From assembly GCA_036505355.1 (NCBI GenBank), contig DASXTP010000105.1, forward strand, positions 2,613-66,612: a DNA stretch of 64,000 bases, read 5' to 3'. The DNA is from Candidatus Eiseniibacteriota bacterium (GTDB lineage: Bacteria; Eisenbacteria; RBG-16-71-46). Shown piece by piece: positions 1,784-28,712 of the stretch (position 1 is the first letter of the stretch; every line of letters starts with the position of its first letter). The position numbers were made by a program, and so were the translations under genes. The notes under the pieces were generated by a model that was not told the origin of the DNA, did not search any database, and saw nothing but the letters and a program-made list of their open reading frames with translations.

Positions 1784-2260
1784 TCAGGGCTGAGGAGGGC
1801 CCGCCACCGTGAGCGTCCGCAAATAGTCCACCACATTCAGGATCTGCCGCTCATTGAGCGTGTGCCCCCACGGGGGCATCCCGGTGGAGAGCCCGACCGC
1901 GCCACCACCGGAGCGGATCGCGGCCAGCAGATCGGCATCGGAGTGCCTCGCCTGGAAGCTCGAATCGGCCAGCGACCGGGGCCGCGGGTCAAGGTTGTAG
2001 GCATTGAAGCCGTCGCCCTTCCCGGCCTCGCCGTGGCAGTTCAGACAGTAGTGGCGATAGAGCGACCGACCTTCGCGGGCGTTGTATCCGAGTTCAGGGA
2101 TCGGCAAGATCGACGCGGAGTAGATCGCGCCAGCACTGTCGGCCGTCGTTGACTCGGCCGCCGTCGGCGCCCGCGTGGTACCGGTGCCACGACAGCCACC
2201 GCCGGCCCACGCCAACACCGCAGCCATCACCACCCCCGACGCGCACAGGCCGCGCCTCAT
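1784..2260 (-). CDS. monoheme c-type cytochrome (class I), secreted/lipoprotein-like
   Basis: Signal-like N-terminus MRRGLCASGVVMAAVLAWAGGGC. Single CLNCH heme motif and a later Met-containing region. ATGA start/stop overlap with the upstream octaheme cytochrome gene. Confidence 0.7.
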   Translation of the reverse strand: MRRGLCASGVVMAAVLAWAGGGCRGTGTTRAPTAAESTTADSAGAIYSASILPIPELGYNAREGRSLYRHYCLNCHGEAGKGDGFNAYNLDPRPRSLADSSFQARHSDADLLAAIRSGGGAVGLSTGMPPWGHTLNERQILNVVDYLRTLTVAGPPQP

Positions 2261-4314
2261 CGCCGCTTTTCTCCCCACCGTGCAGCCGGCTTGGCGGACG
2301 TAGCCGCGCCGTGCCCCACCGTTAGGGGCGGGATCGACGCCACGTACGCAGTCAGCGCACGGGCATCGGCGTCGTCGAGTCCGTAGTCGGGCTCGCGTGC
2401 GTCGGCCCGCCAGCGCTGCGGGGCCTTCAACCAGGAATAGATCCAGCCCGTCTTCAGCCGTTGGCCGGCCCCATCGAGGACAGGGCCATAGAAGCCCCCC
2501 CTGCCGCCGATCATGTGGCAGGCCTGACAGCCGTAACGCTCGTGGAAGAGTTTCCTCCCCCGCTCGACCTCCTCGGCTGCCGATGCGGCCGGGAGGATCT
2601 CTCCGGGGATGCTGTCGTTGCGCAACACGTTTTCGACGAAGCTGGCGATGAACGTCCGCTGGTCGTCGGGCATCTGAAGCTGGATCATTCGTTCTTCGAG
2701 GATCGGCCTGACCGTCGTCGGTAGCTTGAGGTAGCCGGCGAGCCAGCTCTCGCGCACCTTGCTCCCCTCGGCCGTGAGCGGCGCAGTGGAGATGTCGCCG
2801 CCTACTCCGCCGATCTGGTGACACGACATGCACCGGTACTGGCGCACCAGCTCCCCGAAGTGACCCGGAGGGGTATACGAAGTCTCGTGCACCGGCACCT
2901 GGTAGGCCACAGGGACCGGCACGCGCCCGATGGAGAGGAGCGCCGTCGTCAGCGCGTCCGTCTCGTGCTCGGTGAAGCCGAAACGAGGCATCTTCAGCCC
3001 GTCGCGGAACGAGCGTGGGTTGGTGATCTTGGCCGCGAGCCAGTCGGGCAGCCTGCGAGGTAGGTCGTCTCGCCGACCGAAATCGAGCCGGCCGACCGGT
3101 TTGTCCCCGATCCCAGTCAGCTCCGGACCAATCGCCGCTCCCTGACTGTGGCCGCCGATCTGGTGGCAGCCGTTGCAGCCCGCGCGGCGGAAGATGGCCT
3201 CACCTGCCTGCACCACGCGGTCGGCGGAGCGAATGCCCGGCGCGGGCGCCGGTGCCGACGCATCCGTGAATTCCTGAATCATGTAGTCGGCGAGGTCGGC
3301 CACGTCTGACCCACCGAAGTGATACCGCGGCATCTTCGTGTCGGGATAGAAGCGCTGCGGATCGGCGAGGAAGGCGACGAGCCAGCGGCGGGACACCTTG
3401 GACCCGACCCCTGATAACTCCGGCGCGCTCCCATTCCCCCGACCTTCGACGGTGTGGCACGAGATGCACCGCGAGGTCGAGAACAGAAGCTTGCCATGGT
3501 CCGCATTGCCCGACGCGACCACGGCGGTCGATTCGGCGTCGAGATCAACGCGCGGCGGGCGGCTCCACAGGAATGCCACCACCGAATCGATCTCGGCGGC
3601 GGTGAGCAGGAAATCAGGCATCCATGTCGAGGGTCGCAGGGACCTGGGCGACCGGATCCACGCTGCGAGCCACGCCGGATTGGTCTTCTGCGACAGCCCG
3701 GCGAGGTCGGGCGCTTCGCTCTTCCAGCCCTCGTGGCCCGCGACCTTGTGGCAGCCGAAGCAGCCCACCCGCGCCATGAGCCCGCGCCCCTCCGATAGGA
3801 GTGAGGCTTCGGGCACGGTATCGCCAGGATGACAGCGGCCACACGCTGCTTCGGTGTAGCGCACCGGGAGGATCGGCGAACTCCAGTCGGGTACGCGGCC
3901 GTGCGCCTCGGCCACGGTGGTCGCGCGCCCTTGCCCCAGATGACAGGCGACGCATCCGAACCGGTCGAGATCCCCGGGCGTGTGCGGCGTGCGCGGGTGC
4001 TGGCGGAACGGCTCGGGGGCCCCGGCCATGCGTGGCTCCTCGACGCCGAGGTGGCAGCTGACGCAGCGGTCGACATGATTGTCGAGCGCGGGCAGCCAAA
4101 TCTGGCGCACGCCCACCCCGCGCGTCTGGGCCTGCTTCAACTCCTTGAGCGAGGCCGCAGAGTGTAGCAGCCGCTGCCGATACTCATTCTGGTAGCGACG
4201 GTACTCGCGGAAGTAGTCCTTGATCGGTGAGATCGCCAGCACAAGGAGGAAGGTCACGCTGGAGACACCGAACCAGAACCACAGCCGGTCCGACGATGGC
4301 CCGGGCGAGTTCAC
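2257..4314 (-). CDS. membrane-anchored octaheme c-type cytochrome (cytochrome c subunit of the bc complex)
   Basis: GTG start preceded by GGAGGA and overlapping the subunit IV stop (GTGA). N-terminal TM helix (LWFWFGVSSVTFLLVLAI). Eight CxxCH motifs: CVSCH, CVACH, CGRCH, CFGCH, CISCH, CNGCH, CMSCH, CQACH. The last four lie in GxxLFxxxxCxxCH class-I-like modules. Confidence 0.75.
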   Translation of the reverse strand: MNSPGPSSDRLWFWFGVSSVTFLLVLAISPIKDYFREYRRYQNEYRQRLLHSAASLKELKQAQTRGVGVRQIWLPALDNHVDRCVSCHLGVEEPRMAGAPEPFRQHPRTPHTPGDLDRFGCVACHLGQGRATTVAEAHGRVPDWSSPILPVRYTEAACGRCHPGDTVPEASLLSEGRGLMARVGCFGCHKVAGHEGWKSEAPDLAGLSQKTNPAWLAAWIRSPRSLRPSTWMPDFLLTAAEIDSVVAFLWSRPPRVDLDAESTAVVASGNADHGKLLFSTSRCISCHTVEGRGNGSAPELSGVGSKVSRRWLVAFLADPQRFYPDTKMPRYHFGGSDVADLADYMIQEFTDASAPAPAPGIRSADRVVQAGEAIFRRAGCNGCHQIGGHSQGAAIGPELTGIGDKPVGRLDFGRRDDLPRRLPDWLAAKITNPRSFRDGLKMPRFGFTEHETDALTTALLSIGRVPVPVAYQVPVHETSYTPPGHFGELVRQYRCMSCHQIGGVGGDISTAPLTAEGSKVRESWLAGYLKLPTTVRPILEERMIQLQMPDDQRTFIASFVENVLRNDSIPGEILPAASAAEEVERGRKLFHERYGCQACHMIGGRGGFYGPVLDGAGQRLKTGWIYSWLKAPQRWRADAREPDYGLDDADARALTAYVASIPPLTVGHGAATSAKPAARWGEKRR

Positions 4315-5011
4315 AGGTGGACTCCTCCCTGCCACGGCCAGATCCACCTCCACCCGGGACCGCGGAAGAAGGTGCCGATCAGGGTGAGAGTGACCGCCAC
4401 GGTGACGAACCATGTCATGATCCAGTCGCTGATCGTCACGCGGACGAGCCGTCGCCTCCACCATGGGGGACAGGGCGGCAGCGAGGGCAGCAACATCGAC
4501 GAAAAGAGCAAGACCGTCGGCACGAGCACCGCCCATACGCGCCAGGCCACGAGGAAGGCCACGATCGCCGCGGCCACGGTGGTCAGCCACGCCAGCCGCC
4601 GTCGCGAGGGAGCCTCGAGGAAACCCCGGTCCTCGAGATTCGTTCGGAAGTAAGGGATCACCACCATCGCGACCACCACCATCCCCGGGATCAGCACGCC
4701 GGCGACGACCGGCGGGAAGTAGTGGAGCAACTCCTGAAGTCCGAGGAAGTACCAGGGCGCCTTGGCGGGGTTGGGCGTATTGGTCGGGTCGGCGATACCC
4801 TCGAGCGGAGAATCGAAGAAGAGCGACAGCAGCGCCATCGCGATCACGCAGACCTGGATCAGGATGACCTCGCGCAGCAGCAGATGCGGCGCCGTCATCA
4901 CGGTTTCGTCCTGGTCGAAGAGGACGCGGGCGGCGGTCTCGGGGCGGAGGATTGCCAGCCGTTTCGGCGTCGCCGTGGCGTCGCTGCTCGGCTCCAGCCG
5001 GTACTCGGTCA
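4311..5011 (-). CDS. petD: cytochrome b6-f complex subunit IV-like (cytochrome b C-terminal domain)
   Basis: PWYFLGLQELL motif and 3 TM helices. Separate gene directly downstream of the cytochrome b6 N-terminal domain gene (ATGA overlap), i.e. a split cytochrome b as in b6f-type complexes. Confidence 0.8.
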
Positions 5012-5755
5012 TGCTTCCTCCCTGCGAAGGGGAGCCGTGCGACACGACCCGGCGAGGCCGCCGTCCTTGCGCACCCGCCAGAGATGGAGCCCGACCAGGA
5101 ACACCAGCGCCAGCGGCAGGATGACGCAGTGAAGCACGTAGAAGCGGAGGAGGGCATTTTCGCCGACGATGTTGCCGCCCAGCAGCAGATAACGGAACTG
5201 CGGCCCGATGACCGGCATCGCCTTCACCATGTTCGTGCCGACCGAGACCGCCCAGAAGGCGAGCTGGTCCCACGGTAGGAGATAGCCGGTGTAGCTCAAG
5301 AGCAGCGTCAGCAGCAAGAGGGCGACGCCGATTACCCAGTTGAACTCGCGCGGTGGGCGGTAGGCCTTGTGATAGAAGACGCGCAGCATGTGCAGGAAGA
5401 CGACGATCACCATCGCGTGCGCGGGCCAGCGGTGCAGGTTGCGGAGGAACATGCCGTTGCTCACCGTGAACTGCAGCTCTTTCATATCGTGGTAGGCCTG
5501 TGGCACCGAGGGGTGGTAGTAGAGCATCAGCAGGAGGCCGGTGGCGGTGAGGATCGCGAACAGGATCAGGCCAACGGCCCCGAGGTAGTACGTGCTCGAG
5601 CCTTCGAGGCTGCGCCGCCGCACCTTGGCCGAGTGCAGGTGCAGGGTGAGACTTTCCATCACCACCATCACGCGGTTGCGGTTCGTGGCCCGGATACCGT
5701 GGCGGACCACGGAGCGCCACACACGGCTCTCGGTGATCGACTCCGGTAGCTTCAT
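5009..5755 (-). CDS. petB: cytochrome b6 (cytochrome b N-terminal domain)
   Basis: Four-helix bundle with conserved His pairs ([19 protein letters not shown]) and the WDQLAFW motif typical of cytochrome b/b6. Confidence 0.85.
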
Positions 5756-5764
5756 CTCGTCCTC

Positions 5765-6244
5765 TCAGAACCGGTCGGTGGTGCCCGCCGGAACCTCTAC
5801 CGCCGTGTCCACGATCAGCTCTCCCTTTTCGGAGAGGCTCATCTGCAACCAGCGGAGGGGGCGCGGCGCGGGTCCCGCGACGACGTCGCCGGCGAGCGTG
5901 AACTGGCTGCCGTGGCAGGGACAGGCGATGATGTTCCGGTCGGGCTGGAAGCGCGTGATGCATCCGAGGTGGGTGCACACGGCCGACAGCGCCCGGAATC
6001 CTTCCGCGATTCGGATCACGTAGGCGCGCTGCTCCACGTTGGTCACCACCGATCCAACCTCGATCGCCTCTGGCGGCCCGGCGGAGAACGCAGTGGGCGG
6101 CTCAAACAGCACGCGCGGCCGGAGGAAGTCGACCAGCACCACGCCTGCACCACCGGCCGCCACGGCACAGGCAGTCAGCCCGGCGGCAACGCAGAAATCG
6201 CGGCGTGTGATTGGCGGTACGTTGGCGACGTCGGCGTCAGACAT
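5765..6244 (-). CDS. petC: Rieske [2Fe-2S] iron-sulfur protein with Tat signal
   Basis: Twin-arginine motif ITRRDFCVAAG. Rieske boxes CTHLGC and CPCHGS. Confidence 0.85.
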   Translation of the reverse strand: MSDADVANVPPITRRDFCVAAGLTACAVAAGGAGVVLVDFLRPRVLFEPPTAFSAGPPEAIEVGSVVTNVEQRAYVIRIAEGFRALSAVCTHLGCITRFQPDRNIIACPCHGSQFTLAGDVVAGPAPRPLRWLQMSLSEKGELIVDTAVEVPAGTTDRF

Positions 6245-8111
6245 GGGCCGGCTCCAGCAGCCGGAACTGCTCCATGGTGATGGTCCCCGCTGGGCAGCGA
6301 TCGGCACAAAGTCCACATCGGATGCAGACCGTCTCGTCTTTGATCAACGCAGTGCCCGAGCCACCTTGCTTGGCGAGCAGCGCCGCAGCGGTCTCCCCGT
6401 GTTCCGTGCGCACCAGATCCCGCAGCGCCGGATCGGCCGCGAGCTCCGACAGCGGCAGGAAGCTGATGCAATCCTCCGGACACACGTCGGCGCAGCCGCC
6501 GCACAGGATGCACTCGGTGCCCTGCTCCGCATCTTCGTGAAACACGGTGTTGACCCAGCAGTGGAAGCAGCGCGAGGCCTCGCGTTGCGCGTCCGCCTCC
6601 GAGAAACATTGCTCGATTTCAGCGATGCCGACCCGCCGCTCGATCGGCAGGGCCGGTGGACGCTGGCGAGGCACACCCTCGTAATCCAGCACGCGCCGGT
6701 ATCCGGGCAACGGTTCGATGAGCACTTCCTCAGGCGGCAGCGGGAGTGCAGAACCGCGTAGATAGGTGTGGATCGAAGCGGCGGCCTTCTTGCCGTCGGC
6801 GACGGCCTCGATCGCGATGCGTGGTCCGAACGCGGCGTCGCCCCCAGCGTAGATGCCCGGAGCGCTGGTAGCGAGCGTCGTCGGATCCACCTGAAGCGTA
6901 CTGCGCGGCGTCACCGCCACGCCGTCCTCCGGCTGCAGGAACGACAGATCGCAGGCCTGACCGATGGCGAGCACGATCGTGTCCGCCGCGATCGCCAGCT
7001 CGGTGCCGGGTACGAACGTGGGATTGAAGCGGCGCTGGGCGTCGAAGACAGCAGAGCACTCGATGGTCTCGAGACCGGTCACGGAGCCCGCCTCGCCGAG
7101 AATGCGTTGCGGGCCCCGCCCCGGGTGGATCACGATGCCCTCCCGCTGCGCCTCGCGGATCTCCTCGCGGTCGGCCGGCATGGCCTCGAGCGACTCGAGG
7201 CACACGATGTGAACTTCCTTGGCGCCAAAGCGGATCGCGGAGCGCGCGACGTCGAACGCCGTCACGATGTTGAGGCCCGGATGGATGACCTCCTCCCGCG
7301 CCGGAGCCCGCAAGGCGGAACGGGCCACGTCCACCGCGACGTTCCCGCCGCCGACGACCAGCACGCGCCGGCCGAGCTCGACCCGGTAGCCCATGTTGAC
7401 GTTCAGCAGGAAATCCACGCCCTTGAGGACCCCGTCTAGATCGGCGCCGGGAATCTCGAGATCGCGGCTCCGCTGCGCGCCAGGGGCGAGAAAGACGGAC
7501 CGGAAGCCCTGGCGGCGCAGGTCCGACAGCAAGAAATCACGGCCGAGGCGGGCCCCGACCTTGAGTTCGACGCCGAGGTTGAGGATCGCGTTGATCTCGA
7601 GCTTGATCAGCTCGCGCGGCAGACGATATTCGGGGATCCCAAGCCGTAGCATCCCTCCCGGCACCGGCTGAGCTTCGAAGATGGTGACCGGGTAGCCGAG
7701 AAGCGCCAGGTCGTGCGCGGCCGCAAGCCCCGCCGGGCCTGCGCCGATGATCGCCACGCGGTCCTCCGGGTAGCGCCGCAGACGATCACCGTAGATCTCC
7801 TTCAGCAGATCCACGTCCATCATGCTCTCCACGCCGAAGCGCTCGGTGACGAAACGCTTGAGCGCCCGGATGGCAATCGGCTCGTCGAGCGCCCCCCGCC
7901 GGCACGCCGGCTCGCAGGGCGCGGCGCAGATGCGACCACAGATGGACGCGAGCGGATTCGGCCGCCGCGCCACGGCGTAGGCCTCGCGGTACTTCCCCTC
8001 CGCGATCAACGCAACGTAACGCCCGGCCTCCGTGCCGACGGGACAGGCCTTGAAGCAGGGGAAGTTGCTCTCCAGCCACCCCCGGTCGACGAGGCGATCC
8101 GAATCGGACAC
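6237..8111 (-). CDS. NAD(P)H-dependent FAD oxidoreductase of the glutamate-synthase small-subunit (GltD) family fused to 2x[4Fe-4S] ferredoxin domains
   Basis: N-terminal Cys cluster (CFKACP...CGRICAAPCEPAC). Two Rossmann GxGxxG motifs (IIGAGPAGLAAA, VVGGGNVAVD). C-terminal CILCGGCADVCP and CIRCGLCADRCP ferredoxin motifs. Confidence 0.75.
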   Translation of the reverse strand: MSDSDRLVDRGWLESNFPCFKACPVGTEAGRYVALIAEGKYREAYAVARRPNPLASICGRICAAPCEPACRRGALDEPIAIRALKRFVTERFGVESMMDVDLLKEIYGDRLRRYPEDRVAIIGAGPAGLAAAHDLALLGYPVTIFEAQPVPGGMLRLGIPEYRLPRELIKLEINAILNLGVELKVGARLGRDFLLSDLRRQGFRSVFLAPGAQRSRDLEIPGADLDGVLKGVDFLLNVNMGYRVELGRRVLVVGGGNVAVDVARSALRAPAREEVIHPGLNIVTAFDVARSAIRFGAKEVHIVCLESLEAMPADREEIREAQREGIVIHPGRGPQRILGEAGSVTGLETIECSAVFDAQRRFNPTFVPGTELAIAADTIVLAIGQACDLSFLQPEDGVAVTPRSTLQVDPTTLATSAPGIYAGGDAAFGPRIAIEAVADGKKAAASIHTYLRGSALPLPPEEVLIEPLPGYRRVLDYEGVPRQRPPALPIERRVGIAEIEQCFSEADAQREASRCFHCWVNTVFHEDAEQGTECILCGGCADVCPEDCISFLPLSELAADPALRDLVRTEHGETAAALLAKQGGSGTALIKDETVCIRCGLCADRCPAGTITMEQFRLLEPAHV

Positions 8112-8118
8112 CGGATGC

Positions 8119-8709
8119 CTACTTCTTCATCGCGAAGTCGGCCGCTGTCGCCCCCGCGATGGTGACGGTCTTGCCGACCTCGGCTTTGAACCTCGGGTGC
8201 CAGACCTTCACGGTGTAGGCGCCGTCGGGGAGGCCCTTGATGGCATAGGCGCCGGTCTTGTCGGTGACGGCGAACCAGGGGGTCGGAAGCACGACGACGA
8301 AGCCTTCCATCTCGGCGTGCACGTGGCACAGAAGTGTGGCGTTGCATCGCGTCTTGAACGTGTAGCTACGAATCTGCCCCTGCGGCCAGCTCCCCAGGTT
8401 GAACTGCTCGCAACACTTGTCGGGCGAGAAGACGTTGTGGAGGACCTGGTCGCCATTGAGGAAGTCGACCGTGGTCCCCATCAGCACGGGTAGGACGTGG
8501 GGCGTGAACACCAGGTTCTTCTGATTCATCTTGGCGTGAGTCGTCGGCGCCGGGAACTTTTTCCCGGCGATCGCGTCGATATAGACGACCGCGTCGGCGT
8601 TGTTCTTCATGCCGGCCACCGTGACGACCCCTTTGAGCTCCCCTGCCGCCGCGGCCCAAGCCACCACGAACGTCAACACGGCACATCCCATGCCGGACAA
8701 GAGTTTCAT
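8119..8709 (-). CDS. secreted blue copper protein (cupredoxin, type-1 Cu site) with carboxypeptidase-regulatory-like C-terminal segment
   Basis: Signal peptide MKLLSGMGCAVLTFVVAWAAAAG. Putative Cu ligands H (LHNVFS, as in plastocyanin PHNIVF) and C-x2-H-x2-M (LLCHVHAEM, amicyanin-like spacing). C-terminal TGAYAIKGLPDGAYTVKVWHP. Confidence 0.6.
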   Translation of the reverse strand: MKLLSGMGCAVLTFVVAWAAAAGELKGVVTVAGMKNNADAVVYIDAIAGKKFPAPTTHAKMNQKNLVFTPHVLPVLMGTTVDFLNGDQVLHNVFSPDKCCEQFNLGSWPQGQIRSYTFKTRCNATLLCHVHAEMEGFVVVLPTPWFAVTDKTGAYAIKGLPDGAYTVKVWHPRFKAEVGKTVTIAGATAADFAMKK

Positions 8710-8744: not shown

Positions 8745-10067
8745 TCAGAATCCGATGATGACGCCGAGCGTGCCTCCCTCATTCGTGAACTTGCCGCCCG
8801 GCTCCTTCACCCAGGTGCCGGCCAAGAACGACTTGACGTTGGCGCGGGCCAGGCCGTTGACGGTGAGCGATACCTGCTCGGTCTTCTCGTCGGCGATCTT
8901 GAGCGACTCCCACCTCCCGGCCGGAATCAGCCAGGGAAGCGCCACCCAGGACAGTTCCGCGAATTGGTTCTTGATCTTGACGTCGGTGATCGTCGGATCC
9001 GCCACGAAAAGACGGTCGTCCTTCCGGTCCGTGTATCCGGCGCGCGCCATCAGGTCGAGGTAATTCACGGCCATGTCGCCCCCGGCCATTCGAAACGGAT
9101 CGCGGGCGTTGGGGTCCAGGGGATCTCCCCCTTCGAGGATGCTCTTGCCCTTGTAGACGAACCCGGAGAGCGTGAGGGAGGTCTCGCTCCACGGCTTGGG
9201 GTTGGTCGGCAGCGCCGCTTCTGCGCCACCGCTGGGAACTCCGTCGAACGGCAGCCCGCCGAGCTTGTAGGCCAGCCGACCGTACACGTCCTTCGAATTG
9301 TCGCCGATGCTTCCCGATCCCTCCACCACACCGGCGTTGTAGAGCACGCGGTGCTCGAGCATTCCGTAGGCCTCGAGACCTTGCTGGAAGCCATCGGGAG
9401 CCCAGGGGTTGTCGCCGGCGGACTCCGTCAAGACCAGCGGTTCCTGGTCCAGGATGGAGCGGTGCGAGGACAGCAGCATGATTCCTGGCTCGAAGGAGCC
9501 GACCTTGAACTGCAGGGCGGGCGAATCGAGCGGGCGCACCAGCAGATTGACGCGCTCCATCTCGGTCGCGATCTCGCTCCCGTCGCGGGCGAACACAACC
9601 GATCCCCAGAAGGAGAAATGCTCGTCGAGGGTCCCGGCGCCCAGAATTTCGAGCTCGCCGCCCATACCACCAAATGTGGTGGTCTTGGTCGCGTGATCGT
9701 AGTCGACCGCGCTCGTGTAGAGGACAGCGACCGGCGGCATCCCGGGGATCTCTCCCGGCCAGACCGCATGCGGCCAGAGCTTCTTGTAGCCCTCAGCGCC
9801 GATCGAGACCGGAGGGATCTTCGTCATTGCCGCATCGTTGCCCCCAGGAAAGCGGTAGCCATTCTGTCGGAATGCCTCGCCGAAGGGAGTCAGCGCGGGG
9901 ATCGCGACGTGGCAAGTCTGACAGCTCGTCTGGTACTTCCGCGCAAACGCCGGAATCGTGTAGGCATTCCGGGGCGCGATCAGCGCCGCCGAATACAGCA
10001 CGATCAGCGTCAGCCCGAACACGGTACGTACGTCGAACACCATCGGCTTGGGTCCTTCTCGTAGCAT
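8745..10067 (-). CDS. cyc2: Cyc2-like fused monoheme cytochrome c / outer-membrane beta-barrel porin
   Basis: Signal peptide then a single CQTCH heme motif about 45 aa from the N-terminus (AFARKYQTSCQTCHV). The remaining ~380 aa have alternating beta-strand character and end in the OMP-type terminal ...GVIIGF. Size (440 aa) and architecture match Cyc2 of iron oxidizers. Confidence 0.6.
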   Translation of the reverse strand: MLREGPKPMVFDVRTVFGLTLIVLYSAALIAPRNAYTIPAFARKYQTSCQTCHVAIPALTPFGEAFRQNGYRFPGGNDAAMTKIPPVSIGAEGYKKLWPHAVWPGEIPGMPPVAVLYTSAVDYDHATKTTTFGGMGGELEILGAGTLDEHFSFWGSVVFARDGSEIATEMERVNLLVRPLDSPALQFKVGSFEPGIMLLSSHRSILDQEPLVLTESAGDNPWAPDGFQQGLEAYGMLEHRVLYNAGVVEGSGSIGDNSKDVYGRLAYKLGGLPFDGVPSGGAEAALPTNPKPWSETSLTLSGFVYKGKSILEGGDPLDPNARDPFRMAGGDMAVNYLDLMARAGYTDRKDDRLFVADPTITDVKIKNQFAELSWVALPWLIPAGRWESLKIADEKTEQVSLTVNGLARANVKSFLAGTWVKEPGGKFTNEGGTLGVIIGF

Positions 10068-10196: not shown

Positions 10197-10868
10197 TCAG
10201 AGCAGGTGGGTGCGAAGCGCCAGCGAGACTGCCTCGAGCTTGCTGTGGACGTCGAGCTTGCGGAGGATGTTCTGAACGTGGTTCCGTGTCGTCGTAACGC
10301 TGATGAACAGTGAATCGGCGATGCCCTGAGTGCTCGTTCCTTCGGCCAGAAGAGCGAGGACCTGGACTTCGCGCGGGGTCAGCACCGGCGACGGGGGCAA
10401 CGACGGCTCGTTGGCCGCGGGAGCCGACACCGGTGGGGCGTGTTGCTGGGTCAGGATTCGGCGGATCAGCTGGTCGACATCGCGGCGACGATCGACCCGC
10501 TCCAGGAAGTGGATCAGCGTGTACTGCCGCGCGCGAGGGCCTGGCATCACGACGATCGAGAAGCTGGCCGGGACGGTCTCGCCCGACTCGTTGCGGACGT
10601 CGAGCTCGAAGTGGCGTACCGATTCGTGTCGTTCGACCATGAACGTCAGGGCGCACTGGCGGTCGCAGAAGCGGTTACCGAAGACATCTCGCCCACAGAG
10701 GATCTCATGGCAGGACTTGCCGAGGACCTGGGAGGCGGGATAGCCGAGCATCTCCTGGGCACCCTTGTTCCAGATGGCGATGCGCCCCTTCTCGTCGGTC
10801 GCGAAGGCGGCCGCGCCGGCGCGGCCGATCACGTCCAGTGGGTCCACGATCAACGCATCCTTTCGCCT
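10197..10868 (-). CDS. LuxR-family transcriptional regulator with N-terminal PAS sensor domain (start uncertain)
   Basis: C-terminal LuxR HTH (LTPREVQVLALLAEGTSTQGIADSLFISVTTTRNHVQNILRKL). PAS-like segment (IAIWNKGAQEMLGYPASQVLGKSCHEIL). Upstream part of the long ORF looks non-coding. Confidence 0.65.
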   Translation of the reverse strand, partial: RRKDALIVDPLDVIGRAGAAAFATDEKGRIAIWNKGAQEMLGYPASQVLGKSCHEILCGRDVFGNRFCDRQCALTFMVERHESVRHFELDVRNESGETVPASFSIVVMPGPRARQYTLIHFLERVDRRRDVDQLIRRILTQQHAPPVSAPAANEPSLPPSPVLTPREVQVLALLAEGTSTQGIADSLFISVTTTRNHVQNILRKLDVHSKLEAVSLALRTHLL

Positions 10869-11269
10869 CTGCGCGAATCCTCTCCCCCGCGCCTCGTCCA
10901 GCGCGCAACGAGAGCGGGCCAATGGTCCTACCTCATCCCACAGGAAGGCAGCGGGATCGTTGGGCCCTGGCGCGGCTGGAGAGCATAGGCACTCGGACCC
11001 TGCTTTCGACGAAAAATCAGCGAATCGAATAGCGGACCCTCGCCCTACCACTTGGCCATGCCGCATCAACAAACTGCGGGGTAGAGACTTATGGCGCACT
11101 CGGGGAGCGAAAACCGACCCGAAAGATCCGACAAGACCGCTGCGGCGACCCCGCCACGGGTCGCCACTCTTACCCCCCGTCCAGACCTAGCGCGCGGGCG
11201 GCGCATTTTGTCGCAGCTTTTCCCCCAGCCGCTTCGCCCAGTCCAGCGACAGCGCGATCTCGCGGCGCT

Positions 11270-12009: not shown

Positions 12010-14790
12010 GTGAACGATCGGCCGCAGACGCTGGGACCTTATCCCGTCGAGCGCGAGCTGGGGCGTGGCGGGATGGGCGTCGTCTATCTCGCGCGCGACC
12101 CCAAGCTCGACCGCCGGCGATCAAGGTGCTCCCCGACGAGTTCGCTCGCGACCCGGAGCGGCTGGCGCGCTTCGAGCGCGAGGCCCGATTGCTCGCCTCG
12201 CTCAGCCACTCGAACGTGGCCGGCATCTACGGCATCGAGGAGGCTGCCGGGAAGCGACTCCTGATCCTCGAGTACATCCCAGGCGATACGCTGGCGGCCC
12301 GCACCACCCTCGGGCCTTTGCCCCTCGACGAGGCGTTGGACGTGTGCCGGCAGATCGCCCTGGCCGTCGAGGCCGCGCACGACGGCGGGGTCGTCCATCG
12401 CGACTTGAAGCCCGGCAACGTGAAGATCACGCCCGATGGGCAGGTAAAGGTCCTCGACTTTGGCCTCGCTAAGGGCGGGGCTGGAACGCCGTCCAGCTCG
12501 GGCCCGGACCTTTCGCAGTCGCCGACCATCACCTACGCCGCGACCGGTGCCGGCGTGATCCTCGGCACTGCCGCCTATATGAGTCCGGAGAAGGCGCGCG
12601 CGAAACCGATCGACAAGCGCACCGACATCTGGTCGTTCGGCTGCGTGCTCTACGAATGCCTGACCGGCCGGCAGGCGTTCGGCGGCGAGACCGTCTCGGA
12701 CACCATCGCCAGGATCCTCGAGCGCGAGCCCGACTCGTCGGCGCTGCCACCGCAGACGCCGGCGACCGTGCGGGAGCTGCTGCGCCGCTGCCTCGAGAAG
12801 GACGCAAAGAAGCGCCAGCGTGACATCGGCGACGCGCGCCTCGAGCTGGAGGAGGCGATCGCCGCCCGGTCCACTGCCACGCGCGCGGCGGCCGCGGCCG
12901 CCGAAGCGCGGAGCCGCGCGGTGCCCTCGCCACGCACCTGGGCGCTCGTGGCCGTGGCCCTGGTGCTCGGTGCCGCCGCCGGGATCGGCGTCTGGGTGGC
13001 CGCCGGGGCAGGAGCCTCCAGCGCTCGGAGCGGCCGGCCTGTCCACTTGTCGCTGACCACGCCGCCGTCCATTCGTGCTTCGGCTGCGAGCCTTTCACCC
13101 GACGGCCGGACCGTCGTCCTCTTCGGCCAAATGCGGAAGCCCGATGGCACCGAAGAGCCACGGTCTCGTCTCTATACGCGGACGCTGGACGACTACGACC
13201 TCAAGCCCATCCCCGGGGCAGAGGGGGCAACCTTCTTCAATTTTTCGCCCGATGGGCGCTGGGTCGCGTTCGTGCATGCCGTTTCCGAGGAATCTTCCAA
13301 GCTCCGACTCTCCAAGGCCCCCGTGGACGGAAGCTTGCCCCCCGTGGTGCTGAGCGAATGGGACGACGCATGGCGTATGGGCTTCGTTTGGCTCGAGGAC
13401 GGCGATCTGCTCATCATCACCGATGCCAGCACCAGCTTCTTCCGGCTGCCGACGGGCGGTGGCGCCGCGAAGCCGGCCAAGAAGCTGGATACCGGCGGCG
13501 TCTCCCCATCCTTCGACTTCGCGAGTGCCCTTCCCGGGGGGCGCGGCGTCCTCCTCAACGCACATGCGTGGGGTCCGCGCGGCTTTCAGGGCGACCTGTG
13601 GCTGCTCGATCCCAAGACGGGCAAGGCACGCCGGCTGCTCGAGAATGCGGGCAATGGCGTCTACTCACGGACGGGGCACCTGCTCTTCACGCGCGGCGAG
13701 GCCTTGATGGCCGCTCCCTTCGACCTGAGGCGCCGCGCGGTAACAGACAATGTGATCGCCCTAATGAGCGGCCTGCGGACGCCCAACTCGTGGGATCACG
13801 CCTACCTCGATGTGTCCCGGGATGGCAGCCTGTTCTACGCTCCGGGCGGCCGGGTCGGGGTGCGGCGCAGCCTGGCGGTCGCGGACGCAGCAGGAAACGT
13901 CACGCCGTTCATCGGCGAGCCGCGCGCCTACCCGGCCGGCGTGGCGATCTCTCGGAACGACCGGAAAGTCGCGGTGGTCATTCCCAACGCGAGAGCAACC
14001 TATGAAATCTGGGTGGCCGATCTGGATCGGCCAGGACTTCGACGCGTCATCGCCCTGCCGACGGCCGACTGCGCGGGGTCAAGCTGGTCCCCCGACGGAC
14101 GGCAGCTGGCATTCAACCGGCAAGCGAGGGACAAGGACGACGGCGCCTATGTACAGCCGGCGGACGGGAGCATGCCGCCCCAACCCGTCATGAAGAGGCG
14201 ATCGGAGCTGGAGTTCATCACTCCCGGGGCTTGGACGCCGGATGGCTCCGCGCTGTTGGTCAACGCATCATCGGGCGGCACGTCGGACAATCTGGTAGTG
14301 CCGATCACGGCGGCGGGAGACACACGGCCAAGGCCCGCCCGATTCTGGCCACGCCCGCGAGCGAATACGGCACTTGCTTCTCGCCCGATGGACGCCTGCT
14401 CGCCTTCATCTCCGACGAATCCGGGAGGTACGAGGCCTACGTCGCGAGCTACCTGCGAAACGGAGCGGCGGGCACACCCGTGATGGTCTCCGAGGGGGTG
14501 CTAGCTGGGCGCGGTGGTCCGGCCACAAGCTCTACTAGGGTCGGGGCCGTCGACCGGATTCCACCCGCGTTGGAGACGGCGACCGACTTCACCCGGTCCC
14601 CTTCTGTGTAGGCCGACATGCGGAAGCTCAGAGCCACGCCTGGCATATTCGACATGCTCGGCGACGGCCGGATGCTCTTCGTCCAGAAAGGCGAGGAGGA
14701 AGACGACGTGAGCCAGTTCCACGTCATCCTCGGATGGTCGAATGAGCTTCGCGCTCGGATGAGCCAATCCCGCGCGGCCGGGGGCGCGCG
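12010..14790 (+). pseudogene. Ser/Thr protein kinase fused to a TolB-like beta-propeller, disrupted by at least three frameshifts and an internal deletion
   Basis: N-terminal kinase start (LGPYPVERELGRGGMGVVYLARDP) is out of frame with the next segment (VAIKVLPDEF...HRDLKPGNV...DFGLAK) near 12118. The propeller part shifts frame near 14330 and again near 14600 (tail FDMLGDGRMLFVQKGEEEDDVSQFHVILGWSNELRARM is in a third frame). About one blade is missing. Confidence 0.7.
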
Positions 14791-23331: not shown

Positions 23332-25017
23332 TCAGTCGGTGACTCCCGGCAGCTTCATCCCGGTTCGGCGCGCGTGCTCGATGGCTTCGGGGTAGCCGGC
23401 GTCGGCGTGCCGCATCACCCCGGTTCCCGGGTCGTTCGTCAACACCCTCGTCAGCCGCTCGTCGGCCGCCGCGCTGCCGTCACAGACCACCACCATGCCG
23501 GCATGGATCGAGTTGCCGATGCCTACCCCACCGCCATGATGCACGCTCACCCACGAGGCGCCCGAGGCGGTGTTGAGCAGGGCGTTCAAGATCGGCCAGT
23601 CGGCCACCGCGTCGCTGCCGTCCCGCATCCCCTCGGTTTCACGAAACGGCGACGCCACCGAGCCGGCGTCGAGATGGTCCCGCCCGATCACGATCGGGGC
23701 GGCGAGTCGACCTTCGCGCACCATGCGGTTGAAGCGCATCCCGAGCCGCGCCCGCTCGCCGTGGCCCAACCAGCAGATCCGCGCCGGCAGTCCTTGGAAG
23801 CGCACCTGCTTCTGGGCCAGCGGGATCCAGCGGTGGAGCCGGGCATCGTGTGGAAACTCCTCGAGCGCCGCCTGGTCGGTGGCCAGGATGTCGGCGGGCT
23901 CGCCCGAAAGCGCCGCCCAACGGAACGGTCCCTTGCCGACGCAGAACAGCGGCCGCACGTATTCGGGCACGAAGCCCGGATACGAGAACGCCTGATCGTG
24001 CGGCAGCCCGCCTTGCTCGGCCTCGCCCCGCAGGTTGTTGCCGTAGTCGAACAGCACGGTGCCCCGCGCCTTCCAGGTCAACAGCGCCCGCACCTGCTGC
24101 GCCATCGAGGCGCGGGCCCGGCGCACGTGCTCCTCGGGCTGTCGCGCGCGCAGCTCGGCCGCCTGCTCGAGCGAGAGCCCGGCCGGGACGTAGCCGTTGA
24201 GCGGATCGTGAGCCGACGTCTGGTCGGTGGCCACGTCGGGCTTGAGGCCGCGCTCGAGCAGCAGGGCGTGCACTTCGGCCGCGTTACCCACCAGGCCCAC
24301 CGACAACGGCCGCCTCGACTCCGCGGCTCCCCGCGCCCACGCCAGCGCCTCGTCCAGCGAACGGGTGAGCCGGTCGCAGTAGCCGGTCTCGACGCGGCGT
24401 CGCGCCCGCGCTTCGTCCACCTCGACCGCCAGACACACGCCCCCGTTCATGGTGATCGCGAGCGGCTGCGCCCCCCCCATGCCACCCAGCCCGGCGGTGA
24501 GCACCACGCGACCAGCCAGTGAACCGCCGAAATGGCGCGCCGCGCACTCGGCGAAGGTCTCGAAGGTGCCCTGGACGATGCCCTGAGAGCCGATGTAGAT
24601 CCAGGAGCCGGCGGTCATCTGACCGAACATGATGAGGCCCTTGCCCTCCAGCTCCCAGAAGTGCTCCCAGGTCGCCCAGCGCGGCACCAGCAGCGAGTTG
24701 GCGATCAGGACGCGGGGCGCGTGGGGGTGGGTGCGGAACACTCCCACCGCCTTGCCCGACTGCACCAGCAACGTCTCGTCGTTCTCGAGTGCGCGGAGTG
24801 CTACGACCAGGCCATCGAAGGCCGCCCACGAGCGGGCCGCCTTGCCGGTGCCACCGTAGACCACGAGATCGTCGGGGCGCTCGGCGACCTCGGGATCGAG
24901 GTTGTTCATCAACATGCGGAGCGCGGCTTCCTGGGTCCACCCCTTGCACGACTGCGCCGTCCCGCGCGGCGCCCGCACGGTCCGTGCCTGGGAACGGCTC
25001 GTGATCACGGCGCTCAT
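23332..25017 (-). CDS. hutU: urocanate hydratase
   Basis: [41 protein letters not shown] matches the HutU N-terminus. ATGA overlap with hutH. Confidence 0.9.
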
Positions 25018-26543
25018 GACGCCAACACCTCCTCGGCCAGGCGCACCGGCGCCTTCGACACCACCCATCGCGCGACCACCTCGCACGGCTCGGACAACGG
25101 CCGATCGCCCTCGGGCGCCGGCGCCAACCGGCGCACCGCTCCATAGAGCCGCTCCGCGCCCTGGCCGGCCTGGAGCGGCCGCCGGAACTCGAGCGCGCGA
25201 CAGGCGCACAGCAGCTCGAGCGCCACCACCCGGGCCGCGTTGTCGACCACCTGGCGCAGGTGCCGCGCCGCGATCGGCGCCATGCTCACGTGGTCCTCGA
25301 GGCCGCCGCCGGTGGGAATGGAGTCGACGCTCGCCGGATGGCAGAGCACCTTGTTCTCCGACACCAACGCGGCCGCGGTGTACTGGGCCATCATGTACCC
25401 CGACTCGAGGCCCGGCTCGCTCGCCAGTACGGCTGGCAGCTCCGAGACCCGCCCGTCGGTGAGGCGGTCGATGCGGCGCTCGGACAGCGATGCCACCTCG
25501 GCAACCGCGATCTTGAGGTAGTCGGCGGCCAGCGCCACCGGCTGGGCGTGGAACAATCCCGCCGAGATCACGATACCCGGTTCGGCCAACACCAGCGGAT
25601 TGTCGTTCACGCTGTTGATCTCGACCTCGAGCTGGCGCTCGACGTGGATCAGGGCATCCCACGATGCGCCCATCACCTGGGGCACGCAGCGCAGGCTGTA
25701 GGCGTCCTGCACGCGGTCGCAGTTGGCGTGGGATGCCACCAGCGCGCTGCCCTCCGAGTACGCGCGCAAGCGCCGCGCGGTCTCGAGCGCGCCCGGATAG
25801 GGCCGCAATCCCTGGACGTCGGCGCGCGCCGGCTGGAAGGAGCCGAGCAGCACCTCGGTGGACAACGCCGCCGCGGCGACCGCCGCTTCCCACAACGCCC
25901 GCGCATCCACGCACGCCAGCGCCGCCAAGGCGGTCGAGAGCTGGGTGCCGTTGATGAGCGCCAGCCCTTCCTTGGCCTCGAGCGTCAGCGGCTGGAGACC
26001 CGCGCCGCGCAGCGCCAAGGCGGCCGGCATGCGCTGGGCGCCGTGATCCGACCCGAGCCACGCTTCTCCTTCCCCGACCAGCACCAACGCCAGGTGGGCG
26101 AGCGGCGCCAGATCGCCCGAGGCGCCGACCGAACCCTGCAGGGGGATGACCGGCGTCAGGTTGCGCTCGAGCAACTGGAGCAGGGCGTCCACCAGCTCGG
26201 GCCGGCAGCCCGAGCAGCCGCGCGACAGCGACGCGGCGCGCAAGAAGATCATGGCCCGGGAAACGTCGCGAGACGCCAGGGGCCCGACGCCAGCCGAGTG
26301 CGAGCGCAGCAGGTTGAGCTGGAGCTGGCGCACTTGCTCGGGCTCGATCGGGTGATCCTTGAGCTCCCCGAAGCCCGTGGTCACGCCGTACACCGCCCGC
26401 CCCTCGGCGAGCGCGGTCTCGATCACCCGCCGGCTCGCCACCAGGCGCTGGCGCGCCGACTTGCCCAGGGTCACCGGAGCGCCCTTCCGGGCCACCTGCA
26501 CCACGTCGCCCAACCCGAGCGGCCGACTCCCGAGCTCGATCAC
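25014..26543 (-). CDS. hutH: histidine ammonia-lyase
   Basis: [15 protein letters not shown] carries the Ala-Ser-Gly triad that forms the MIO cofactor. Confidence 0.9.
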
Positions 26544-28712
26544 CCCTGCTCCTCGGAAAGGGCCTCACAGACTCGCGGCCCACCCAGAAACTCGGCCGCC
26601 TCCCGGGCCAGCGCCCGGGCGTCGCCCAAGAGGCGCGGCGTGACCGGAAGCGCGTCGAGAAACGGGCCACGGTAGGAGGCTTTCGCCAGGCGCGCGTCGC
26701 ACACCACCAGCACGCCCCGGTCGTCGGCGCGACGGATCAGGCGCCCGACCCCCTGGCGGAAGCGCAGCACCGCCTCCGGCACGCTGTCGTTCCGGAACGG
26801 GTCGAGCCCGCGCTCGCGGAGTCGCTCGCCCCGCGCTTCGACCAACGGATCGTCGGGCACCGAAAACGGCAGCTTCGCCACCACCAGGATCTCCAGGGTC
26901 TCACCGGGGAAGTCGACACCTTCCCACAGGTTCTGAACTCCGAGCAAGATCGCACCGCGCCGCTCCCGGAACCGCTCGCTGACCCGGCTCGCCGGGCCGT
27001 CCCATTCCTGGGCCAGCAGCAGGCGTCCCGACGGCAGGCGGCCGAGCAAGTGCTCGCGGACGCGGCGCAGCCGCTCGTGAGCGGTGAAGAGCACCAGCTG
27101 GCTGCGGTCGGTGTGCTCGGCAAGCGAGGCGACCACCTCGGCGATGTCGCGGGCCTCGTCGTCCGAGGCGCGGGCATGGATGAAGGTCTTCATCTGGCGC
27201 TCGAGCGGGAACGGGGACGGGTAGGAGGCCACTTCCACGTCCCCCTCGTTCCGATCCTCGAGTCCCAAGCGCTCGGCGACGAACCGGAAGTCACCACCGG
27301 CCGACAGGGTGGCCGAGGTGAGCACCGTCGCACGCGCGCGGTCCACCACCAGACGCCGGGCATGTCGCCCCACCGAGACCGGTGACCCGTGCAGCTCGAC
27401 GCCCCGCCCCGATCCCCCGCCGGGCGCGGCGGTCGTTCCCGGCTGCCGTCCGGTGCGCCAGTACACCCAGTCCCGCTCCGCAGCCTCGGCCAGATGCTCG
27501 AGGTCTCCCCCCAGGGTCCGCCACACCGCGGCGCCGCGCTCGAGCTCCGCAGCCAGATCCTCCACCGAGACCGAAGCGCCCGAATCCCCGCGCACCGCCA
27601 CGTCGGCGACCCGCGACGCCAGCATACCGAGGGAACGCGCGAAGCTCTCACACCCGGAGAGCAGCGCCTCCAAGGGCTCGAGATCGGACCCCAGCAGCTC
27701 CCCCACCGATCGATAGCGTTGACGCGAGCCGTACAGCTCGTCGCGCTCGCTCCGAGGCTCGACCGCTTGGAAGAAGCGCTCGATCTCGGCCCGGGTGCCG
27801 GTCGCTCTCTCGAGCAAGCGGTCCACCTCGGCCGCCACCTCGGCTCGCGGCGCCTCCTGGAACAGCGGCAGCATCAGGCCGCGCACCCTCGCAGCGAGCC
27901 CCCGCGGCGCTCCAGCGCCGGCAGCGCGCCCGCTCCCCAGCAAGCGAAGCGCCTCCTCCATGCGGTGGCGCGAGACCGAGCGTTCGAGCTGCGCGAGCAA
28001 TACCCCTTCCAGGCGGTGGGCCTCGTCCACCACCAGCAGGTCGAACTTCGGCAGCAGCCCCTCGGTCTCACCCGAGAGCGCCAGTACCGCATGATTCACG
28101 ATCAGGAGCCGGGCCTCCCCGGCGCGCCTGCGCGCCGTCGCCCAGGGGCATTCGCGGGCGCGGCGGCAGGTCAAGGTCGAGCAGGCCACCGGGTCGGCCG
28201 CCACCCGGGGGCGCAGTCGCCGGTAGGTCTCGGCATCCGAGGCCGGGAAGCGGTCGAGATCCCCCTCGGGGTCGGACGCGCCCCATCGCTTGAGCTGCTC
28301 GAGCGTTTCGACCTCTTCGGCGCCGGCGCTCCATAGGGCTTCCAGGGCTCGCGGGCACAGGTAGTTCTGCTTGCCCTTGAGCCGGGCACAGGGAAGGCTC
28401 ACCCCCAATACTTCGAGCAACGCCGGAAGATCGCGCTCGAAGAGCTGGTCCTGGAGGGATTTGGTACAGGTGGCAATGACGGTGCGCTGGCCCGTCTCGA
28501 GTCCGGCCAGCACGGCGGGCAGCAAGTACGCCAAGGACTTGCCGACCCCGGTCGGGGCCTCGGCGAAGAGCACGCCCCCCTGCTCGAACACCCGTGCCAC
28601 GTCGGCGGCCATGACGCGCTGGGCCGCACGGTCCTCATAGCGCGGCCAGGCGGTGGCCAACCGTCCGTCGGCGCGAAACAGTGCCTCGACCCGATCCCTC
28701 AGCGACACGCGC
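26540..28712 (-). CDS. dinG: ATP-dependent DNA helicase, DinG/Rad3-like (DEAD_2 + helicase C)
   Basis: Walker A ([10 protein letters not shown]), DEAH box ([11 protein letters not shown]), C-terminal helicase motifs. GTG start after GGGGAG. The listed 1220-aa ORF is a read-through artefact. Confidence 0.8.

Follow-up and report, generated by a model that had tools for sequence, protein, structure and literature searches.

A predicted type-1 cupredoxin nested in a CarboxypepD_reg domain as a candidate periplasmic partner of Cyc2 and a Rieske/cytochrome b complex

No marker of neutrophilic iron oxidation is used more widely than Cyc2, an outer-membrane fusion of a cytochrome and a porin, and to our knowledge the periplasmic acceptors of its electrons are ill defined except in a few Proteobacteria. 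Which protein might carry electrons between Cyc2 and the respiratory complexes of such cells is the question raised by a gene in a 64,000-nucleotide stretch of DNA, hereafter the window, from Candidatus Eiseniibacteriota bacterium (assembly GCA_036505355.1, contig DASXTP010000105.1, positions 2,613 to 66,612 of the forward strand). The gene encodes a predicted secreted cupredoxin and, as in hundreds of bacteria from soils and sediments, lies between a gene of the Cyc2 family and a set of genes for an unusual inner-membrane Rieske/cytochrome b complex (Table 1). On the basis of sequence comparison and structural models, we consider it probable (roughly 0.65) that the product is a soluble type-1 copper protein which shuttles electrons through the periplasm between the Cyc2 haem-porin of the outer membrane and the multihaem cytochrome c that belongs to the Rieske/cytochrome b complex, a complex of the kind known from anaerobic ammonium-oxidizing (anammox) bacteria. 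The interest of the finding lies mainly in the conserved cluster around the cupredoxin gene.

The cupredoxin and its predicted copper site

At a G+C content of 69%, the window is crowded with spurious overlapping open reading frames (ORFs). The cupredoxin ORF is regarded as genuine, rather than as a high-GC artefact, because an identical protein from a metagenome-assembled genome (MAG) of Candidatus Eisenbacteria is on record at NCBI/JGI and because 3,115 homologues were found at E ≤ 1e-3. A Shine-Dalgarno-like AAGGAAGAGG stands immediately 5' of the ATG, and family members carry database names as diverse as 'plastocyanin', 'carboxypeptidase regulatory-like domain-containing protein' and 'methylamine utilization protein'. 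The N-terminus consists of MK, a hydrophobic stretch and AAA/GE, is the sole segment modeled with a per-residue confidence (pLDDT) below 50, and reads as a Sec signal peptide; a lipoprotein identity was considered and rejected, as Cys9 is unconserved and stands outside a lipobox context.

Two short motifs hold the putative ligands, namely LHNVFS from residue 90, which contributes His91, and CHVHAEM from residue 128, which contributes Cys128, His131 and Met134. All four residues are invariant across 42 close homologues (63–85% identity), and they are kept in 121, 120, 121, and 120, respectively, of 122 sequences comprising the query and 121 representatives of 50%-identity clusters, none of them more than 76% and most 38–50% identical to the query. 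The position after the first histidine (residue 92) is occupied by Asn in 108 and by Ser in nine of these 122 sequences. Among the 99,833 residues of the six-frame ORFs of the window, H-x(30-50)-C-x2-H-x2-M is present a single time, namely in the cupredoxin ORF, and when the mature protein is shuffled 200,000 times with its composition preserved, the pattern arises in 253 cases (0.13%), so that the ligand motif is more than chance. Outside the four ligands, Cys99 and Cys122 are invariant within the close subfamily only and could form a disulfide, His58, Glu133, Glu135, and His171 are likewise invariant there and not family-wide, and Trp170, in the surrounding sandwich, is kept in 115 of the 122 representatives.

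The AlphaFold2 model of the protein (pLDDT 81, predicted TM-score 0.79) contains eight strands between residues 59 and 141, and nearly all matches returned by Foldseek from the PDB are cupredoxins, with target-normalized TM-scores of 0.5–0.69; among them are the domain fused to the nitrite reductase NirK (6hbe, E = 2e-4), 5fc9, pseudoazurin, plastocyanin, and amicyanin. A fold search against a viral library returned the same cupredoxin and CarboxypepD_reg matches again. At the sequence level, NCBIfam gave weak halocyanin and plastocyanin matches only, and a family-profile search of PDB sequences retrieved a NirK cupredoxin domain (9cck, E = 7e-6), a Nitrosopumilus cupredoxin (5fc9) and amicyanins (E ~0.01–0.05). 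The His, Cys, His, and Met ligands line up in the 9cck and 6hbe alignments, and in hhalign His91, Cys128, His131, and Met134 fall on amicyanin His53, Cys92, His95, and Met98, with CHVHAEM aligned to CTPHPFM (the amicyanin ligand numbering is the textbook one).

Judged by its model, the protein has the eight-stranded Greek-key sandwich of a cupredoxin. Alignment to solved sites suggests that the four ligands converge on one copper site of type 1, where a single Cu would be bound by His91, Cys128, His131, and Met134 and the C-x2-H-x2-M loop would be that of amicyanin. An earlier note, made from the letters of this DNA, had proposed a secreted cupredoxin with a complete type-1 ligand set, which agrees with the predicted signal peptide, the modeled fold and the alignment of the conserved ligands to known ones. 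It had also compared the ligand spacing to that of amicyanin and plastocyanin, and here only the former comparison can be kept, as the ligand loop of plastocyanin is C-x2-H-x4-M. A second conserved metal site was rejected, as His58, His71, and His171 vary over the family, and so were the CuA, red-copper and purple-copper variants, as the site has a single Cys and the Met is present.

The cupredoxin is embedded in a second domain. Against CarboxypepD_reg (PF13620), the native protein scores 35.3 bits (cut-off 32.3) over profile positions 28–81 only, and its N-terminal strands (residues 23–44, pLDDT ~90) resembled the missing first quarter of this domain. When the middle was excised in silico, joining residues 23–48 to 144–196, the match rose to 39.8 bits and extended over profile positions 2–81 of 82. 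The same excision in five distant members (36–54% identity) gave 33.7–59.6 bits, in each case above the cut-off, with coverage from position 1–2 in four of them and from position 15 in the remaining one. The excised cupredoxin domain in turn reaches 22.7 bits against Pfam Copper-bind (PF00127, cut-off 21.2), and the excised middles of four distant members score 20.0–26.8 bits. Because excision restores a full-length CarboxypepD_reg match both here and in four of the five distant members, the cupredoxin is taken to be inserted in the sandwich, between the second and third strands of this small transthyretin-like domain, rather than appended to it. The two termini of a classical cupredoxin emerge at the end that faces away from the copper site, hence by analogy the sandwich would hang from the 'southern' end and the face around His131 would be free for docking.

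The fusion to a carboxypeptidase-regulatory-like sandwich, as the earlier note had put it, is therefore real as far as the domain match is concerned, and an end-to-end arrangement is replaced by an insertion. The architecture had also been called unusual, which holds among characterized cupredoxins and fails in nature at large, where it is common, being encoded in no fewer than 594 species genomes and represented by over 3,000 protein clusters. In some relatives (P0123, P0136, and P0137; 367–399 aa) the whole nested unit is duplicated in tandem, with two matched stretches. Neither the nesting of a cupredoxin in another domain, among characterized blue copper proteins, nor the protein family and its Cyc2-cupredoxin-Rieske/cytochrome b cluster is described in the literature searched, the coverage of which excluded most subscription journals.

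The gene cluster and its relatives

Under the published definition (Keffer et al., 2021, PMC8406198), a Cyc2 protein has at least 365 aa and a 16-strand porin, and its single CxxCH is preceded by PxFAR[Q/K][T/Y] and followed, four residues downstream, by PxL. The protein encoded upstream of the cupredoxin has one CxxCH in the N-terminal motif PAFARKY-QTS-CQTCH-VAI-PAL, with PAL four residues downstream, followed by a porin-like β-barrel, and its length exceeds the published minimum (Table 1). Its AlphaFold2 model is a β-barrel (pLDDT 77) with OmpT, OmpU, OmpF, and OprP porins as top Foldseek matches, and it has no match in Pfam or NCBIfam. The CxxCH is invariant in 42 homologues, many of which have FSRKY instead of FARKY. 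The proposal that the cupredoxin adjoins a Cyc2-like gene is thus upheld by the agreement with the published definition and by the modeled porin fold. In a study with FeGenie-type gene calls, zero oxidative electron-uptake genes were listed for Geothrix MAGs (PMC12285243), while Geothrix isolates carry the Cyc2-like gene; standard Cyc2 hidden Markov models may therefore miss this subfamily, a comparison that sets isolates against the MAGs of another study. Further upstream lies a gene for a PAS-LuxR regulator; many related loci have it before their Cyc2-like gene as well, which hints at redox- or oxygen-responsive control of the cluster.

Downstream of the cupredoxin gene, all genes of the cluster continue on the same strand, and its junctions are gaps of at most 35 bp or overlapping start and stop codons. 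The GltD-like gene starts 7 bp past the cupredoxin stop codon, and its product is devoid of a signal peptide. The likely Rieske start, at 6244, overlaps the 3' end of the GltD-like gene, and the gene for the subunit IV-like protein is conserved in related loci, one of which (L086) has an equivalent that matches Cytochrom_B_C. The gene for the eight-haem cytochrome c has a GTG start preceded by GGGAGGAG. From their domain content, the genes at 2257–8111 appear to encode a Rieske/cytochrome b complex of the anammox type that includes an NAD(P) oxidoreductase, and such genes are conserved in several phyla outside Planctomycetes.

Table 1. Features of the cupredoxin gene, its product and the surrounding cluster (nucleotide coordinates refer to the window, residue numbers to the cupredoxin protein)
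Feature	Position	Strand	Details
PAS + LuxR/GerE transcription regulator	10197..11099	-	Pfam PAS_9 + GerE; maximal ORF, true start maybe further in
Cyc2-family fused monohaem cytochrome-porin (predicted)	8745..10067	-	440 aa; ends 35 bp upstream of cupredoxin start
Nested-domain cupredoxin gene	8119..8709	-	196 aa, ATG start, stop codon included
Signal peptide (predicted)	residues 1-22		N-terminal sequence
CarboxypepD_reg strands 1-2	~residues 23-48		
Inserted cupredoxin, predicted type-1 copper	~residues 49-143		Putative ligands His91, Cys128, His131, Met134
Remainder of CarboxypepD_reg	~residues 144-196		
GltD-like NAD(P)-binding FAD/iron-sulfur oxidoreductase	6237..8111	-	624 aa; Pfam Pyr_redox_2, Fer4_20, Fer4; NCBIfam PRK12771 444 bits
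Rieske 2Fe-2S protein, Tat-type N-terminus	5765..6244	-	Pfam Rieske + UCR_Fe-S_N
Short b6-type cytochrome b	5009..5755	-	248 aa; Pfam Cytochrome_B 150 bits
Subunit IV-like C-terminal half of cytochrome b	4311..5012	-	233 aa; start overlaps cytochrome b stop codon
Membrane-anchored cytochrome c, eight CxxCH	2257..4314	-	685 aa; Pfam Cytochrom_C x4 + Cytochrome_CBB3

Relatives of the cupredoxin were found in at least 594 genomes, with one genome scanned per species, and their hosts include Acidobacteriota (among them the cultured Geothrix campi and G. terrae), Thermoanaerobaculia, Ignavibacteriota, Bacteroidota, Latescibacterota, and Gemmatimonas. Gene neighborhoods were surveyed in the 80 closest loci, which were retrieved with a profile built from the close-homologue alignment, so that near relatives are favored. 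In 68 of the 77 loci with enough upstream DNA, the gene immediately before the cupredoxin gene, on the same strand, is Cyc2-like, a proportion that is biased to the own subfamily because the closest relatives were surveyed; a Cyc2-like gene is also upstream in all four sampled members of 41–48% identity. Most loci continue downstream with the GltD-like, Rieske, cytochrome b, subunit IV, and multihaem genes; locus L088 has the same gene set in another order, and in L001 the pair of Cyc2-like and cupredoxin genes is followed by genes resembling alternative complex III.

Other loci differ in the conduit or in the redox partner. In two MAGs, one from Bacteroidota and one from Gemmatimonas (L069:3324-6928 and L076:3371-6967), an 11-haem MtrA-like cytochrome and an MtrB_PioB porin (403–405 bits) are encoded directly upstream of the cupredoxin instead of Cyc2, which reads as a non-orthologous replacement of the outer-membrane conduit; L069 retains the downstream complex, and the sequence of L076 stops at the cupredoxin gene. 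In some Thermoanaerobaculia and Acidobacteria, a dihaem c-type cytochrome (~310–345 aa) is encoded after the cupredoxin and the locus is free of a Cyc2-like gene (L017:7548-8468, L034:6782-7789, and L049:7461-8495). A member of 42% identity, from a protein cluster in which NCBI calls one member a 'methylamine utilization protein', stands at the end of a nosZ-nosD-nosF-nosY-nosL cluster (L084:1-6591 and L085:1-6591), and this context suggests that it donates electrons to N2O reductase. Taken together, the pattern of loci points to a general periplasmic electron carrier, the dominant partner of which would be an outer-membrane electron conduit.

Some loci carry further genes of interest. In L091:1-5960, a CusCBA/CzcCBA-like resistance-nodulation-division (RND) efflux system (OEP, CusB-like, and ACR_tran) lies immediately upstream of the pair of Cyc2-like and cupredoxin genes. 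In L092:1112-4928, a family member is followed downstream by a second cupredoxin (Cupredoxin_1, 167 aa), a 943-aa GltD-like protein and a COX2-like cupredoxin (154 aa). The remainder of the window, including 12126–14483 on the plus strand and 23332–26670 on the minus strand, holds apparently unrelated housekeeping genes, among them a Ser/Thr kinase with PD40 β-propeller repeats, a DEAD/Helicase_C_2 helicase, subtilase/FG-GAP proteins and a urocanase ORF that is over-extended at its 5' end.

Electron flow and rival explanations

In the proposed mechanism, the cupredoxin would carry single electrons across the periplasm between two partners suggested by the gene order, namely the Cyc2 haem-porin encoded immediately upstream and the periplasmic multihaem cytochrome c of the downstream Rieske/cytochrome b complex, which would itself bear a cytoplasmic NAD(P)-binding FAD/iron-sulfur subunit. 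The flow could be inward or outward; MtrAB-type conduits work in both directions. If inward, electrons from extracellular Fe(II) would enter through Cyc2, as they do in iron oxidation based on Cyc2, and reach the complex by means of the copper protein, much as bc1 is fed by rusticyanin in Acidithiobacillus (PMC10654088). If outward, quinol electrons would pass to an extracellular oxidant and leave through Cyc2, and the complex would split them between NAD(P)+ and the copper protein, which would then serve as the high-potential branch. The potential of Mariprofundus Cyc2 is +208 mV (PMC8406198), and Geothrix is a genus known for Fe(III) reducers (PMC12285243).

Several observations weigh against such a shuttle. 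The potentials of type-1 Cu sites are usually high, which suits the oxidation of Fe(II) more than the reduction of ferrihydrite, and still the cluster is found in Geothrix with its Fe(III) reducers. Gene linkage falls short of proof of physical partnership, so that the cupredoxin could serve Cyc2 alone or the complex alone, and the count of upstream Cyc2-like genes carries the subfamily bias described above. Some family members stand in unrelated gene contexts, among them one without a recognizable redox neighbor (L089). With regard to the copper site, the whole protein scores 19.9 bits against Copper-bind (residues 59–140, profile positions 5–98 of 99), which is below the cut-off of 21.2, and the confidence of the AlphaFold2 model drops near the ligand loops (block means 62–78).

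The cupredoxin might work solely with the Rieske/cytochrome b complex, as its soluble acceptor or donor, in the way that plastocyanin works with b6f, feeding terminal reductases or oxidases encoded elsewhere in the genome while Cyc2 uses another carrier. Such a role would suit the split into cytochrome b6 and subunit IV, which resembles b6f with plastocyanin as its natural partner (PMC5600118), and it would also suit the family members that lie beside nosZ or dihaem cytochromes c in loci devoid of a Cyc2 gene. We nevertheless hold it to be unlikely, as the Cyc2-like gene is the most constant neighbor, its pairing with the cupredoxin persists in L001, where genes resembling alternative complex III replace the complex, and an MtrAB-like conduit substitutes where Cyc2 is missing. 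A role in copper handling, as a periplasmic copper buffer or a CopI-type chaperone instead of an electron carrier, appears quite improbable. Cupredoxin-like copper-resistance proteins do exist, one member of the family is found downstream of a CusCBA-like RND efflux system and another after nosL, the copper-delivery gene of the nos cluster; on the other hand, the conserved neighbors in most loci are haem, iron-sulfur, and flavin redox proteins and include no copper enzyme, the only metal ligands kept family-wide are the four of the buried type-1 site while other histidines vary, and the sequence is free of any His- or Met-rich stretch.

The remaining two explanations concern the nature of the domain itself. 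That it is a metal-free β-sandwich, with a structural role or as a plug or adaptor of the porin, and that its ligand-like residues are relics, is a view to which we assign very little weight: the sub-threshold Copper-bind score of the whole protein and the generic structural nature of the CarboxypepD_reg module would be in keeping with it, whereas relics would not remain 98–100% conserved down to 35–45% identity, and all four residues align to ligands of solved copper proteins. Hardly to be credited is an amicyanin-type acceptor for methylamine dehydrogenase, in spite of the C-x2-H-x2-M loop shared with amicyanin and of the NCBI name 'methylamine utilization protein' on one member, as the inspected neighborhoods contain no annotated methylamine dehydrogenase or mau gene and no NCBIfam amicyanin model matches at E ≤ 0.1. 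The shuttle between Cyc2 and the complex is the reading that the evidence supports best.

Comparison with known systems and implications

In its mode of action the protein would resemble amicyanin, pseudoazurin, plastocyanin or rusticyanin. Among characterized copper proteins, amicyanin of Paracoccus denitrificans (PDB 1AAC) shares the cupredoxin fold, the H-N-V of the first histidine, the Cys-x2-His-x2-Met loop and the alignment of all four ligands. However, amicyanin is a single-domain protein encoded in the mau cluster with methylamine dehydrogenase as its donor, while the present protein lies inside CarboxypepD_reg, is encoded among genes for Cyc2 and a Rieske/cytochrome b complex and matches amicyanins in sequence only weakly, at the E-values given above. 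Given its context outside mau and the lack of an equivalog-model match, it is no amicyanin in the strict sense. The best matches in both sequence and structure are the C-terminal cupredoxins fused to NirK (9cck and 6hbe), which are likewise type-1 cupredoxins tethered to another domain; these are appended to a catalytic enzyme as a built-in donor, whereas here the domain is inserted in a non-catalytic sandwich and forms a free-standing 19-kDa protein.

The rusticyanin of Acidithiobacillus ferrooxidans is a periplasmic type-1 copper protein, as is predicted here, and its rus operon likewise includes a Cyc2 haem-porin; rus is the last gene of that operon and not adjacent to cyc2. Rusticyanin has a C-x4-H-x4-M loop, is acid-stable, has a very high potential and is partnered with an aa3 oxidase, while in the present cupredoxin the loop is C-x2-H-x2-M, Asn92 follows the first histidine, a second domain surrounds the copper domain and the candidate partner is a Rieske/cytochrome b complex linked to NAD(P). 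The ligands of rusticyanin are His85, Cys138, His143, and Met148, with Ser86 beside the first histidine, and in Acidithiobacillus it acts as a branch-point carrier feeding bc1 (PMC10654088). The earlier note had seen exactly the rusticyanin position in this locus, of which the functional analogy of an operon partner of Cyc2 stands, and the ligand loop, Asn92 in place of Ser86 and a partner complex other than the aa3 oxidase do not fit. No specific similarity of the cupredoxin to rusticyanin was detectable, and the protein is a functional analogue of rusticyanin and not a relative.

With regard to the complex, a soluble cupredoxin together with a Rieske protein, a short cytochrome b and subunit IV is reminiscent of plastocyanin and b6f (PMC5600118), but here photosynthesis is absent, the eight-haem cytochrome c replaces cytochrome f, a cytoplasmic NAD(P) oxidoreductase is added and the ligand loop is shorter. 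A GltD-like FAD/iron-sulfur subunit, a Rieske protein, a split cytochrome b and a multihaem cytochrome c are shared with the Kuenenia complexes kustd1480-85 and kuste4569-74, for which PMC12954380 mentions no Cyc2 or cupredoxin partner (PMC12954380). The hosts here, in contrast to anammox bacteria, are Eisenbacteria, Acidobacteriota, Ignavibacteriota, and Bacteroidota, and inspection by eye of the cytochrome b from the window revealed no CxGG (haem cn) motif. For the anammox Rieske/cytochrome b complexes, it has been proposed that quinol electrons are bifurcated to NAD(P)+ and to a high-potential acceptor (PMC5600118; PMC12954380). This proposal stems from anammox bacteria, and the same kind of complex is found here with a defined candidate for the high-potential partner; the presence of the cluster in cultured Geothrix species could make the bifurcation idea testable.

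More broadly, and tentatively, at somewhat less than even odds, the cupredoxin may be the dedicated periplasmic link of a widespread module for extracellular electron exchange, composed of a conduit (Cyc2, or MtrAB in some lineages), the copper protein and an anammox-type complex, by which the redox chemistry of extracellular iron, other metals or humics would be linked directly to the quinone and NAD(P)H pools of Acidobacteriota, Ignavibacteriota, Bacteroidota, Eisenbacteria, and other groups. The copper center would then be the 'downhill' branch of quinol bifurcation or, in reverse, the entry point of Fe(II) electrons. As a conserved copper protein beside Cyc2 in hundreds of genomes of phyla other than the Proteobacteria, it is a concrete candidate for the missing periplasmic link.

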